DNA of 64,000 nucleotides. It comes from Raillietiella orientalis (lineage: Eukaryota). Shown piece after piece: positions 6,672 through 54,514 of the stretch (position 1 is its first letter; each line of letters starts with the position of its first letter). Under the pieces are notes generated by a model. That model had not been told where the DNA came from. It did no database searches and saw only the letters and a program-made list of their open reading frames with translations. The DNA is taken from NCBI GenBank assembly GCA_036172245.1, contig JAYWIR010000018.1, positions 2,976,001-3,040,000 on the forward strand, read 5' to 3'. Made by a program: the position numbers and the translations under genes.

Positions 6672-9141
6672 TTAATAAGATCGAGCGATATAGAGTAGTT
6701 CATCCCAATACTCGGGATTAATATCATTGAGGAGGCAGCCCATTACTCGTATAGCGTTCTCATTTTGAGCTACCATTTCCGATCGTGATTCATCACCAAG
6801 ATGAGAATAGCCAACCATCGTTGGTCCAAATACCGTGGCTAAGTTGTCAGCAGGCATCTTACATGCTGCACTTCTTGCTACACGACAGAGGTGTGATAGT
6901 AGGAAGGCTAGAGTGTCACGGTTTGGTACAGGTAACTGCTGTATCGCATTGTGAAGACTCCTTCGTCTGACCTCAATGTCAGGAGATGTTGTGGCCTCAA
7001 GAAACGTCTCCAGGAACCTTGTGGGTATCACATGTTCTGTAAGTGACTTCAAAAAGTCTTTGAGTACACTGCACACAGCATGAATCTTATAGAGAGATAA
7101 CTTGGGTTTTCCGGGACTCTTCAGTAAGAGATTCTGGAAAGTATATGCATACATGCACGAGGAATAAAAAAAAAAATTGTTTACCTTCAACTCCTTCACA
7201 GATTTAATAGCACCTGGAACTCGATAAATACCCTTCACGTCAAGACCATGGTCTTCCACATGTTGTACACAACGTATAATGATAGCAGGTATTTGAGGGC
7301 GTGTAACGTACTTGAAATTTCTAAGGCTACCACCTTCCTTTATCTGCGGAGTAGAAGCGCATGGTAATGGCACAAAGTTGTCACAATTACGGTGACAACG
7401 CGCACAGCAACCCCTACAAAGATATGCTATATTGAAAATTCGAAGGCGCTCTCCACATCCTTGACACAGTCTCAGATGGGTCACAAATGTAGCCCTAAAA
7501 CTATGAGGTGTTCGGGGTAATTTCGAGCATGTTGTATCCTCAAAAGGATAAGTTCTTCCGGTTAATATGGAAGATGCCGCACCCTCGGCAGGAAGAACAG
7601 GTTGTGTTATTTCGCTGATTACGTGTACAGTTTCTTCTCTTGGAATTAGAACACTTTCATCCTCAGATCTGAGGACTGGTCTTGTTGGTGGAGCTTCTTT
7701 GAATGCTTCGGGCACCTTTGAAGGAGACCCAATTTTTTCTATTTCACGGTCTGGGAAACTGTGAATATGAACCAAGCAAACAAATGAGTAAATACCTTCC
7801 TGGAGTACCCTGGAATCTACTGCAACATCAAGATCACCAGTAACTTTTGCCGCTGCAGAAAATCGTGTTGGACTTTCCAAGACTGTATCTGCTTCCAATT
7901 TCTAGAGAGTTATGGAAGGGTTGCAAAAATCAGCTGGTTGTTTGCCAATGAACACTTGCTTCGTCAGTAGCAGAAAGTTCATCCGAAGGGCGATACCTCT
8001 TTCGAGGAGGGGTTTCATCTAATGTTCTCTTCTCCCGAGACGTCATGCTGTATTCCGCGTCACGTGAAAGTTCCAAGTCATCTGCTACGGAAGTGCTCTC
8101 ACGGGCTGCTGCACCTGCATATGTATTTATTCAACATATGTACTCCGCTTGAACCCTCTCAGCATGAAATCCAAATGCAAAGTCTCCAAAATGACCATGT
8201 TGAAACATTTCACATCTCAAACGACCACAAAATCATCGTCAGACTATTGGAAACGCCCATAATTAAGTTGACTATTCGCAATCGAGAATCGAATCGACCG
8301 GTGTTGGCTCAGTGGACAGTGGCCGCATGTGGACAGTGAACGTACAGCATGGATGTTCATTGAAAGATTCAAACATTCACGAGTGTTCGAATCTACAGGT
8401 TAGAATGAAAAGTAACGGTACCACGATCCTCGTCTGAAACTCTCACATCTGGGAACTCCTTCTGGGCAGATTCGGTACTCATTCTCCGCTTCAAATATGG
8501 ATGAACAATTTTTTTAGATTCCAGCATGTCCTCCAACAACTTTATGTCAGTTTCCTACAAAATGTTGCCAGTGCAAGAACATAAAAACGCCTTCGTTACT
8601 ACACCATTTAGTAGAACGTACCGCATTAAGCAACTGCTGTAAATAAGTCCCCACAGCAGATCTTTGATCGCCCAGAAATTCGCTCACATCTCTGAATCTG
8701 TCAAAGAGCTGCTCTATTTTAGTGGTTTCATAATCTGGTAAAATTTCCACATTCCAATTTCTGGCTTCCCATGTCTCAATGAGGCTCTTCAGCTGCAAAG
8801 CCCACTGCCATACATTCGAAACGCTCTCTGTAATAAAGAAACGAAATCACTGGAGGAAACTCTCGCACAGAGCATTCCAATACAACTTAATATAAATTTT
8901 TAGGATATCCTTTAATTATCTCATACGCTGAACTCAATTCCATCATACAAATAGATTATACGATGCAACACCATACAAGGAAACGGTAATGATTGCGATG
9001 AACCGATGTCACTTACACAAAATGCCAACGATTACAACGTAGGAAGTTACCAGTTTGCTCCATCAGGGTATCCACACTGCTCCTTAACTCCTCCACGATC
9101 CCATCGAGAAGTTTTCTCAACGTTTCGTCAGTTGTTTCCAT
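6672..9141 (-). CDS. RacGAP1/CYK-4-like paralog, copy 1 (coiled coil, C1, RhoGAP; ~572 aa; C-terminally truncated; Arg finger retained)
   Basis: Exons 9141-9051, 8827-8622, 8554-8422, 8114-7960, 7901-7796, 7750-7185 and 7133-6672 splice in frame (1719 nt). C1 motif HSF..CQGC..C..C..CH..C..LPC; GAP motifs GIYRVPG, LKDFLKSL, NLATVFGP. Confidence 0.88.
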
Positions 9142-51954: not shown

Positions 51955-54514
51955 TCAAGGAAGGCTTGGTGATTGAAAAACACGTCTGGGTTGCAATTGA
52001 GCAGCTCTTCTGCAAGAAAAAATAACACAAGTGGATGGTAACAGTGTACTGACGTTGCCCAGGGAGGTGTGCCAGAATAGCAATCCACAATGGATGGTCG
52101 GAGGACATCAGTATCACGAGGGACGCAAAGTAGTTGATCCCAGTACTCGGGATTAATATCCTTGAGGAGGCACCCCATGACTTGTGTAGCCTTCTCATTA
52201 TCTGCTAGTTGTTGTGATGGAGGTGGATCACCAAGACAAGAATAGCCAACAATCGTTGGTCCAAATATGGTGGCTATGCTGTCATCAGGCATTTTACATG
52301 CTGGACTTCTTGCTACACGACATAGATGTGATAGTAGGAAGGCTAGAGTATCACGGTTTGGTACAGGTAACTGCTGTATTGCATTGTGAATACTCCTTCG
52401 TCTGACCTCAATGTCAGGAGATTTTGTGGCCTCAACAAATGTTTCCCAGAGGCAATTAGGTATGACATGATCTGTAAGTGATTTTAAAAAGTCTTTCAAA
52501 ACACTGCACACAGCATGAATCTCATAGAGAGATAGGTTGGTGGTTCCAGGACTCTTCAGTAAGCGATCCTGGGAAGTATATGCATGCATGCAGGAGGAAT
52601 AAAAAAAAAAATTGTTTACCTTCAACTCCTTCACAGCTTTATCAGCGCCTGGAACTCGATAAATACCCAGCTCTTGAAGACCATGGTCTTCCACATGTTG
52701 GACACATCGTATAACAAGAGCAGGTATGCGAGGGCGTGCAACAACCACAAAATCTTCAAGGGCACCAAACTCTCTCTTCTGTATGGCAGGAATGCATGGC
52801 AACGGCACTAATTCTTTGCATTCTGGATGGCAAAGTGCACGGCAGCCCATACAACGGTATGCTGTCTTGCCAAATCGAATTCGTTGTTTACATCCTTGGC
52901 AGTCTCCTGGCTTCACTACATGTTTAGACACAAAACTATGAGGTTGTTGGGGTAATTTAGAGGCGCTGTTAGTGTGAAGGACAGGAGGCAATTGATGAAT
53001 TGAAACTTGTTTTATTCCACTTTCTGAGGGTGTACGCACATGAAACCCAACTTGACGGCTCTCACTCTGAGATCTTCGCCGAGATTTTCGTGGTACATGT
53101 TTATTGGATTCTTCAAGCACATTAAAAAATGAGTCAACTTTGTCGATTTCATCTGTCTTACGGTCTGGAAAGCTATGAGGATGAACTAGGCAGATGGAAA
53201 AATACCTTGGTTAAATACTGTGGAGGACATTCTTACTCCATCACTTCCATATGTAAGTACAGACTGTGCAATGATCCCTCTTGGAGTTCCCTCGACTGCA
53301 TCTGGTTTTAATTTCTAGAGAATATTCAATATTGTGAAAAAATAAGTTTTTTGAATAGCCATATGCACTTGCTTCATCAGTTGTTATAATATGATACGAA
53401 GGGCGAGACTTCTTTTCTGGAGGTGGTTTATCTAATGCACTGTTCATCTGGGCTCGCATGCTGGCTTCTGTTTCACGATAAGAAATCCCTAAATCATCTG
53501 CACTGCAACTGGTTGCCATAGCTGGTGCATCTGCATAGAAATTAATCAAGAGTATTTTGTGCACCTAACAATGGTCAGCATGAAATGCATTGTATTTGCA
53601 AAGTTTCATCAAAGTCAATATTGAGACCTTCGAAATATCAAACTATCACAAAATAATGTGAAGCTATAAGAAAGCTTTTTATTCAGTTAATGCTCATAAC
53701 ATAGAATTGACTACCCCAGTGTTGAGATAGTATGAACTTAGAGGATGTAAAAAGTAAAATACAATACGAATGCTCACGGAAAGAATGTTAAAGATCAATT
53801 CTAGTGGCTAAAATGAAAGAAACATTTACCGTAATCATCATTTTCAAAACCCATATGTGAGAACTTTTTGTAGCTAAATACAGTATCCAATTGTTGTTTT
53901 AAATCCAGGTTATTTAGGTTATCAGAAGTTAAGATTCCTTTCAGTACATTGATTGTATTATCCTACAAAATAGTAGCAGAACTCAAAATTGGACTAACAC
54001 TCTTTCCCAAACTTTTATAAAAACATACCAAATCACACAACTTTTTTAAATATTTCTGTTTTTCACGCTTTTCTTTGTCCAGCACTTTTCTCGCATTTTG
54101 CAAGGAGTCTGAGAGATCTTCTTTTTCCTTTTGTTCACTTTCTAGTAGCTCTTGCAATTTTCCATTTTTGGCTTTCAAGTCTCTAATGGTCTTCTTGTGG
54201 TCAACAACACACTCCAATAAACTGCAAACGTTAGCTGAAATAAATAAACCAAATCCGTGGAGGACACTTTCGCATAGAGTTTCACAATACAACGCAGTAT
54301 ACATTTAACATTTAGTTGAATTCAATTTCATCTTTCAAATATTTTATACAAGGCTGCAGTAACTATTCTCAAAAATCAATAGAATTTGAACAAACTATAA
54401 ATAGTTACAACATAAACAGTTACCAGTTTCCACTTCTAGGTTATGCTTAGATTCCTCATAAGACCTTTTCACATCTTCGAAAAGGCGTTGAATTCTTTCT
54501 GAAGATTGTGACAT
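51955..54514 (-). CDS. RACGAP1: Rac GTPase-activating protein 1 / CYK-4 (centralspindlin GAP subunit), probable parental gene, 603 aa
   Basis: Exons 54514-54424, 54234-54029, 53962-53830, 53530-53373, 53314-53206, 53164-52620, 52568-52054 and 52009-51955 total 1812 nt in frame. Coiled coil LQNARKVLDKEKREK, C1 HSFVSKHVVKPGDCQGCKQRIRFGK, GAP GIYRVPG, C-terminal RRVFQSPSLP (F-x-S-P tail typical of the family). Confidence 0.92.

Follow-up and report, generated by a model that had tools for sequence, protein, structure and literature searches.

RacGAP1/MgcRacGAP/CYK-4/Tumbleweed is the GAP subunit of centralspindlin, a heterotetramer that it forms with kinesin-6. From the N terminus, proteins of this type carry a short stretch followed by a heptad coiled coil and a linker, then adjoining C1 and RhoGAP domains and a C-terminal tail. 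RacGAP1 is portrayed as a single gene, highly conserved throughout Metazoa (bioRxiv 10.1101/2024.08.16.607330). In Caenorhabditis elegans, the coil mediates dimerisation of CYK-4 and a short region before the coil binds ZEN-4 (PMC6056237), and structural modelling depicts interdigitated coils together with N-terminal flanks (bioRxiv 10.1101/2024.08.16.607330). Here we describe an array of six such genes in a 64,000-nucleotide (nt) window of Raillietiella orientalis DNA (assembly GCA_036172245.1, contig JAYWIR010000018.1, positions 2,976,001 to 3,040,000 of the forward strand); the window is this whole stretch, and coordinates count from its first letter. An earlier reading of the same DNA (the sequence-only reading) had pointed to a coil-encoding exon 2 that differs greatly among the six genes and to an almost invariant intron after exon 3 (intron 3), and had proposed altered partner specificity or an arms race at this interface. 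We find that exon 2 dates back nearly to the first duplication and has escaped homogenisation, and that the spacers, the stretch from intron 3 to exon 4 and the 3' half of the repeat unit are kept 95-100% alike by short-tract gene conversion, in which the parent gene takes part.

The array departs from the RacGAP1 described elsewhere in several respects. There are six genes, one of which (the parent) retains the C-terminal tail; the five further copies (c1 to c5) lack it and have strongly diverged coils and C1 domains. Because c1 and c2 are identical, comparisons here use the four distinct copies c1, c3, c4 and c5, two of which have lost the catalytic arginine finger. Even the parent is only 36-44% identical to its best named homologues, which come from molluscs, arthropods and vertebrates.

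The closest parallels to the pattern of divergence are gene pairs under conversion. A ramped peak of total divergence, silent sites included, is treated as the signature of selection preserving differences against conversion in PMC3924837, which cites Teshima and Innan 2008 and the cases of red/green opsin exon 5 and RHD/RHCE. The present array resembles the opsin and RHD/RHCE cases in its low background, introns included, its local peaks that extend to silent sites and their decaying flanks. Unlike them, it has five to six members rather than two, its broad peaks take in entire domains where theirs involve a few sites, the ratio of replacement to silent divergence (dN/dS) does not single the peaks out, and it is known from sequence alone. 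Similar 'islands' are reported for the GOT1 paralogues of a copepod (PMC3728101).

Among RacGAP relatives, the RhoGAPs of the wasps Leptopilina and Venturia also arose by duplication of RacGAP1, followed by partly tandem duplication and fast evolution. Most members have lost the catalytic arginine and GTPase-binding residues, and the Leptopilina proteins, in which coil and C1 are gone and a signal peptide has been acquired, serve as virulence factors (bioRxiv 10.1101/2023.06.05.543686). The copies here, by contrast, keep coil and C1, and the arginine is lost in only two of the four distinct ones. A secreted RhoGAP of the parasitoid type was considered and rejected on inspection of the sequences: coil and C1 are retained, and the N terminus (METTDETLRK...) is acidic, with no hydrophobic stretch. 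Identity to the RacGAP1 of Leptopilina and Venturia is 42-44%, so the source organism is not close to those wasps. Drosophila offers a further comparison in RacGAP84C (RotundRacGAP), a paralogue of RacGAP50C. This second RacGAP has a role in spermatid cyst elongation (PMC3469442) and shows that extra RacGAP genes can take germline jobs; unlike the units described here, it is a single dispersed gene and not part of a conversion-linked array. A literature search on duplications of RacGAP1, MgcRacGAP, centralspindlin and kinesin-6 returned the parasitoid-wasp families and choanoflagellate Cyk4-like paralogues, and within the limited collection covered it contained no full-length tandem RacGAP1 array.

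The array consists of a direct repeat unit of ~6.2 kb, present in six copies in the window with start-to-start spacings of 9878, 6189, 16902, 6182 and 6283 nt. Each unit carries one minus-strand RacGAP1/CYK-4-like gene. Gene models were drawn from sequence alone, by combining open frames, GT/AG sites, the alignment of the six units and homology:

51955..54514, minus strand: parent gene, RacGAP1/CYK-4-like, 600 amino acids, 8 exons
54514-54424, 54234-54029, 53962-53830 and 53530-53369, minus strand: exons 1 to 4 of the parent
53301-53206, 53164-52620, 52568-52054 and 52009-51955, minus strand: exons 5 to 8 of the parent
6672..9141, minus strand: copy c1, 569 amino acids, exon 2 at 8827-8622
16550..19018, minus strand: copy c2, 569 amino acids, exon 2 at 18704-18499
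22749..25206, minus strand: copy c3, 566 amino acids, exon 2 at 24892-24687
39641..42105, minus strand: copy c4, 569 amino acids, exon 2 at 41791-41586
45821..48283, minus strand: copy c5, 569 amino acids, exon 2 at 47969-47764

An early stop common to all five copies, which end after 566-569 residues, removes the last exon of the parent, the one that encodes its C-terminal tail. The 5' flank of the parent is likewise unique to it: ahead of the ATG, the copies match it for no more than ~70 nt, and the rest of their 5' flank is a 3.3-kb spacer that is the 3' flank of the parent and acts as the 5' flank of every copy. Full copies of this spacer are 97.4-99.1% identical to one another (blastn), and no Pfam family was found in the four spacer open reading frames (ORFs) checked:

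19019..22276, no strand assigned: inter-gene spacer of the 6.2-kb unit, delimited by blastn
9142-10988 with 14665-16087, 25207-27545, 42106-45360, and 48284-50932 with 51027-51643: further copies of the spacer

Copies c1 and c2 have 2 differences in ~3.2 kb (6142-9346 against 16020-19223 of the window), a 1-bp indel in a T-run of intron 6 (7176) and one substitution after the stop (6530), whereas their upstream flanks differ by ~4% (17 differences in ~420 nt). Their identity reflects either a very recent long conversion or duplication, or a duplication in the assembly.

The contrast between exon 2 and intron 3 given in the sequence-only reading is confirmed. Exon 2 is 206 nt long, flanked by AG and GT, open and free of gaps in all six genes, and the limits given for the feature (8622 and 54234) correspond to the outermost bounds of exon 2 in c1 and in the parent. 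All five peptides quoted from it were recovered in the minus-strand translation, at six places:

54137-54235 (parent), 8730-8828 (c1) and 18607-18705 (c2), minus strand: quoted exon 2 peptides
24795-24893 (c3), 41694-41792 (c4) and 47872-47970 (c5), minus strand: quoted exon 2 peptides

Among the four distinct copies, 25.7-45.1% of exon 2 bases differ and only 12-34 of 68 residues are identical between any two; the difference from copy to parent is 40.8-44.7%, which places the copies as far from one another as from the parent. Intron 3 differs by 0.3-4.9% among the copies over 313 alignment columns (8421-8115 in c1), and its first 200 nt show 0.00-0.01 differences per 40-nt window. At least 154 substitutions thus fall in the 206 columns of exon 2 against 15 in the 313 columns of intron 3, far beyond chance. 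The intron 3 of the copies is nonetheless 38% different from that of the parent. Neither feature stands alone: the invariant tract extends beyond intron 3, covering ~0.65 kb from the middle of exon 3 through intron 3, exon 4 and intron 4, and there is a second, broader peak of divergence from exon 5 to early exon 7.

The sliding-window profile of identity across units, a check that the sequence-only reading had named, was computed as the mean pairwise difference among copies in 40-nt windows, and shows a ramped peak centred on exon 2. Divergence climbs from 0.06 to 0.27 along intron 1, lies at 0.28-0.44 in exon 2 and 0.24-0.26 in intron 2, and drops from 0.17 to 0.03 along exon 3 before reaching 0.00 in intron 3. 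Over whole segments, copies differ by 12.6-17.9% in intron 1 and 9.1-30.3% in intron 2. The second peak runs at 0.09-0.38 per window, with its maximum (0.33-0.38) over C1; the protein segment that it affects comprises the linker, C1 and the half of RhoGAP that comes first and bears the arginine finger. Each peak has its centre in coding DNA, and the only long intron and the 3.3-kb spacers are flat. Exon 1, which encodes the residues ahead of the coil, varies far less, with 17-25 of 30 residues identical. The unit accordingly divides as follows:

8503..8983 in c1, minus strand: divergence island 1, covering distal intron 1, exon 2, intron 2 and the first third of exon 3
18380-18860 (c2), 24569-25048 (c3), 41468-41947 (c4) and 47646-48125 (c5), minus strand: same columns of island 1
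7872..8502 in c1, minus strand: homogenised tract, covering late exon 3, intron 3, exon 4, intron 4 and the start of exon 5, with 0.00-0.10 differences per window
23938-24568 (c3), 40836-41467 (c4) and 47015-47645 (c5), minus strand: same columns of the homogenised tract
7035..7871 in c1, minus strand: divergence island 2, covering exon 5, intron 5, exon 6, intron 6 and the start of exon 7
23103-23937 (c3), 40004-40835 (c4) and 46184-47014 (c5), minus strand: same columns of island 2

Silent sites separate the age of a segment from selection on its protein product. Pooled over copies, exon 2 has a proportion of silent differences (pS) of 0.353 and of replacement differences (pN) of 0.366, for a dN/dS of 1.05 by counting (codon bootstrap 0.72-1.60), and the six pairwise values range from 0.74 to 1.50. 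A maximum-likelihood (ML) codon model gives an omega of 1.06. There is no replacement excess, and the arms race proposed for the coil interface is not demonstrated by these data. Replacement divergence (dN) in exon 2 is 0.32-0.76 among copies, and silent divergence (dS) is 0.30-0.64, about equal to the 0.44-0.81 that separates the copies from the parent. C1, in the second island, is likewise diverged at silent sites (pS 0.433, pN 0.307 among copies). When silent differences were counted only at codons with the same amino acid in both copies, which avoids pathway artefacts, exon 2 had 30 in 145 codons against 6 in 265 for exon 4, ~0.5 kb away. Silent divergence that is about tenfold higher lies beyond the reach of protein-level selection and therefore marks exon 2 as old sequence; it follows that the contrast between exon and intron is mainly one of escape from gene conversion. 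The sequence-only reading had anticipated that escape alone would be implied if silent sites in exon 2 and in its flanking short introns were as diverged as replacement sites. This holds for the silent sites of exon 2 and only by half for the flanking introns, whose divergence stays below that of the exon. In exon 2 (alignment columns 996-1201), the transition/transversion ratio by ML is 1.0, against 1.6-1.8 in other segments, which may reflect partial saturation.

Evidence for exchange comes from the switching of nearest neighbours along the unit. The closest pair is c3 and c5 in the far 5' flank (0.8%), c1 and c3 in intron 3 (0.3%) and again in exon 5, where they are identical, and c4 and c5 in C1 and also in late exon 7, where they differ by 0.3%. 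The parent is involved as well. In intron 6 it differs from c1 by 5.9% and from c3 by 26.5%; it has 0-3 differences per 40 nt from all copies over columns 2880-3000; and it matches c4 without a difference in the 40-nt window at columns 2600-2640, in the first half of the GAP domain. Together, the switching neighbours and the tracts shared between parent and copies indicate that sequence exchange explains the alikeness of the rest of the unit. Conversion templated by complementary DNA, which would be limited to exons, was considered and rejected: the peak extends into introns 1 and 2, and it comes to an end within exon 3 rather than at the borders of exons.

The copies have remained open throughout this divergence. 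Among the four distinct ones, the 1,750 coding columns hold at least 596 substitutions yet neither an indel event nor a premature stop, although ~27.5 stops would be expected, given that 4.6% of random substitutions make one (probability about 1e-12). For exon 2 alone, 9.6 stops would be expected (probability 6.6e-5). Non-coding DNA, in comparison, shows 9 indel events per 250 substitutions. Across introns 1 to 6, all 36 donors read GT and 34 of the 36 acceptors read AG. The other two acceptors, both of intron 4 (in c4 and in c5), are followed 6 nt downstream by an in-frame AG that is common to the six genes. Decay is confined to the region past the new stop, where the intron 7 donor is lost in three of the five copies and c5 carries a 2-nt deletion. 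The absence of stops and indels over so many substitutions, with splice sites kept, argues that the copies are under selection to stay open; as far as their reading frames can tell, they are not pseudogenes.

The assignment to the RacGAP1/CYK-4 type is borne out by domain content, with C1_1 and RhoGAP in parent and copies, and by homology, the best named matches being RacGAP1. The longest ORF of the parent unit (446 amino acids, 51870-53210) scores 32.1 bits for C1_1 at residues 91-140, where the Pfam cut-off is 26.5 bits, and 113.6 bits for RhoGAP at 163-321. It has 805 homologues at E<=0.001, the best named being rac GTPase-activating protein 1/tumbleweed at E values of 3e-70 and weaker. Among the copies, C1_1 and RhoGAP score 33.5 and 87.2 bits in c3, 29.1 and 79.9 bits in c4, and 32.6 and 84.4 bits in c5; c1 has the strongest RhoGAP (124.8 bits) and a C1_1 score of 21.8 bits, below the cut-off. 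Identity to 16 outgroup RacGAP1 proteins is 0.46 in C1 for the parent against 0.28-0.34 for the copies, and 0.45 against 0.38-0.42 in GAP. Every copy has 8 of 8 His/Cys zinc ligands at the positions given by the C1 consensus, even though any two copies agree at only 20-28 of 49 C1 residues. The arginine finger (G-I/L-Y-R), an Arg in 16 of 16 outgroups, is present in the parent, c1, c2 and c4, and is replaced by Ala in c3 (NIYAHPG) and c5 (HIYAVPE). In c3, the Asn of the NLA motif of the GAP domain is also Lys. At this motif the parent itself is the odd gene: it has Ser-Ile (52240-52300) where 16 of 16 outgroups and c1, c4 and c5 have Asn-Leu.

Exon 2 encodes a heptad-repeat coiled coil, as the sequence-only reading had held, with one register common to all copies; we judged this by our own heptad count, not with a trained predictor. 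In the five distinct sequences, hydrophobic residues occupy 12-16 of 20 a/d positions against 10-14 of 49 positions elsewhere, and one 'a' position has a conserved Asn. The shared register ranks top in the parent, c1, c3 and c5, and is tied with a second register (12 of 20) in c4. Within this frame the core has changed: a 'd' position is Trp in c1, c3 and c5 and Leu in the parent and c4, and one 'a' position is Pro in c1 and c3 and Arg in c4. The coil of c1 is rich in Trp, and that of c4 is the most parent-like. Retention of the heptads beats a mutation-only simulation clearly only for c1 (P = 0.001-0.0105). A complex prediction for two c1 exon 2 peptides gave a score of 0.01, with a predicted local distance difference test (pLDDT) value of <50 for the partner, and carries no weight here in either direction.

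The data show a mosaic pattern, old islands and intact genes, and we consider that these are best accounted for if conversion that makes the coil and the linker-C1-GAP interfaces alike is selected against, a reading to which we assign a probability of roughly 0.55. The genes are an old tandem family of one conserved parent and five copies, with silent divergence reaching ~0.3-0.6 wherever it was left to build up. The 6.2-kb units are engaged in continuing short-tract interlocus conversion or unequal exchange that reaches the parent too, and the invariant intron 3 is simply part of a recent conversion tract. Two coding segments escape homogenisation at all times, each copy keeping its own ancient version: the exon 2 coil, by which the protein dimerises and the start of which packs against kinesin-6, and the segment from the linker through C1 to the first half of GAP, with the membrane-binding and GTPase-binding surfaces and the arginine finger.

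The pressure envisaged stems from dimerisation. Duplicates of a homodimer would cross-pair by default, and altered copies would then poison the essential parent. In C. elegans, mutant C1/GAP subunits are expected to dimerise with the wild type through the coil, and complexes with even one mutant C1/GAP domain possibly fail to localise (PMC6056237); loss of heteromers may be needed for paralogues to function independently (PMC6711710). The copies, two of them without an arginine finger, would thus be required not to pair with or mimic one another or the parent. A private coil in each copy would block cross-pairing, and conversion that restored a shared coil would be removed by selection; the outcome would be escape from paralogue interference and changed partner specificity. 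We reasonably infer that the pairing specificity of the copies has changed, as the sequence-only reading had suggested. The claim that the N-terminal region acts in both dimerisation and kinesin-6 binding agrees with PMC6056237 and bioRxiv 10.1101/2024.08.16.607330; because exon 1 is much less variable than the coil, we place the emphasis on dimerisation at least as much as on kinesin-6. The changes in the coil core would fit the idea of private coils and are no proof of it.

Several observations weigh against this reading. The pair c1 and c2 shows that exon 2 can be copied whole. No segment has a replacement excess: outside exon 2, dN/dS is 0.61-2.37 with all intervals including 1, and ML omega over segments is 0.80-1.38. 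Within exon 2, heptad a/d positions and the surface are alike in dN/dS (1.13 against 1.02) and in identity (0.39 against 0.34). In the mutation-only simulation, c3 gives weaker evidence of heptad retention (P = 0.02-0.35) and c4 and c5 give none (P = 0.08-0.36), and g-e' ion pairs number 0-2 in every homo- and hetero-pair, so that no pairing preference is predicted. Coding DNA makes up 28% of the unit, and by our own estimate two islands, the only ones present, would both be centred on it by chance with a probability of ~0.08. The copies may instead be under very relaxed constraint, two segments having happened to drift past the identity that conversion needs and then diverged further at the neutral rate, with no adaptive meaning. 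Such neutral escape, which we regard as doubtful yet the most credible of the competing explanations, accords with a dN/dS of ~1 in every segment, with exon 2 silent sites as diverged as replacement sites, with a number of invariant exon 2 residues close to the drift expectation (a rough estimate from tree length) and with heptad retention that is not significant in c4 and c5. It sits poorly with the absence of stops and indels over at least 596 coding substitutions, with the intact splice sites and with the retention of all zinc ligands. It also leaves unexplained why both peaks lie on coding DNA while the sole long intron and the 3.3-kb spacer are flat, and relaxed exons should not out-diverge their flanking introns as exon 2 does (25.7-45.1% against 12.6-17.9% in intron 1). 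The ramped, coding-centred peaks, the open frames and the near equality of dN and dS, where a constrained gene would have dN far below dS, together lead us to favour selection against homogenisation over purely neutral escape, if only modestly, since none of the tests picks out replacement changes.

Other explanations fare less well. Recurrent positive selection at the dimerisation/kinesin-6 interface, acting on a young, near-identical background, would account for the preserved ORFs and for an exon 2 dN that is 2-4 times the intron 1 divergence, and the coil is part of the kinesin-6 interface (bioRxiv 10.1101/2024.08.16.607330). We nevertheless think it quite unlikely: dN/dS is indistinguishable from 1 by counting and by ML, silent divergence is raised about tenfold over exon 4, the exon 2 lineages are about as old as the split from the parent, and exon 1, immediately before the coil, varies far less. 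That the copies are dead, or that the array is an assembly or polishing artefact of a collapsed repeat, is very improbable. The ~3.2-kb identity of c1 and c2 and a dN/dS of ~1 could be read in this way, yet there are five intact ORFs with splice sites kept, the four distinct versions of exon 2 each sit within unbroken sequence whose flanks are graded, c1 and c2 have unlike 5' flanks and a retrotransposon insertion between their units, and polishing that might erase a few percent of divergence cannot make islands of 40%. We give least credence of all to a functional element in intron 3, such as an embedded RNA or an enhancer. Four copies without a difference over ~200 nt would suit one, but the window contains no Rfam match and no tRNA by scan, and the fold of the intron is no better than that of shuffled sequences (z = +1.11; 86 of 100 shuffles fold at least as well). 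The flat tract moreover continues through exon 4 and intron 4 at equally low silent divergence, the spacers are likewise 97-99% alike, and the parent has an intron 3 that is 38% different. Selection against homogenisation could be extended to a specific function, in which the array would supply mutually insulated centralspindlin-like GAP subunits, the private coil setting the dimer partner or kinesin-6, the C1/GAP surface setting the membrane or GTPase target, and the arginine-less copies acting as regulators or decoys. Taken as a whole, this extended proposal is speculative and, in our judgement, improbable.

GC-rich non-long-terminal-repeat (non-LTR) retrotransposons break two of the spacers:

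10989..14664, plus strand: non-LTR retrotransposon in the c1-c2 spacer, breaking the spacer alignment (Pfam RVT_1, 2.4e-19; ORF 11413-13119)
27546..39178, both orientations: nest of related non-LTR retrotransposon copies, 11.6 kb, GC 0.58-0.61

The coding region of the first lies in two overlapping frames (11413-13119 and 12930-14378), and the element has probably suffered a frameshift. The nest takes the place of the end of the c3-c4 spacer and of the sequence past the 3' end of c4; it has internal inverted and direct matches of up to 66-88% identity and also matches the element at 11-13.5 kb. Within it, an uninterrupted ORF of 1029 amino acids (28385-31474, minus strand) carries RVT_1 (8.7e-23) and zf-RVT, and this element could still be active. 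Beyond the last copy, the region at 4000-6000 is GC-rich (0.61) and contains long open frames on each strand; it matches no Pfam family and may be a further repeat element at the edge of the array. On the other side, a LEM-domain gene (56321-60211, plus strand; Pfam LEM, 2.2e-11) lies head-to-head with the parent, and its downstream open frames resemble, by eye, the C-terminal region of MAN1/LEMD3. Two open frames at 62796-63647 (minus strand) look, by eye only, like exons of a Rab3-type small GTPase, with the motifs GNSSVGKT and DTAGQE.

The array thus presents a known population-genetic pattern in a gene family where it was undescribed. It is a teaching case, in that a hypervariable exon beside an invariant intron is by itself no proof of an arms race, and silent sites separate the old exon from the recently overwritten intron. 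Its five further full-length open copies, which differ almost only in the dimerisation coil and in C1/GAP surfaces, would constitute a natural experiment on the pairing and targeting specificity of RacGAP1, and on how an essential dimeric protein escapes interference from its own duplicates; the divergence peaks point to candidate residues for differences in binding and localisation. If the extended proposal of mutually insulated subunits is true, and if matching kinesin-6 paralogues exist, the array would be part of a co-diversifying cytokinesis module, deployed for example in the germline, in asymmetric division or in genetic conflict.

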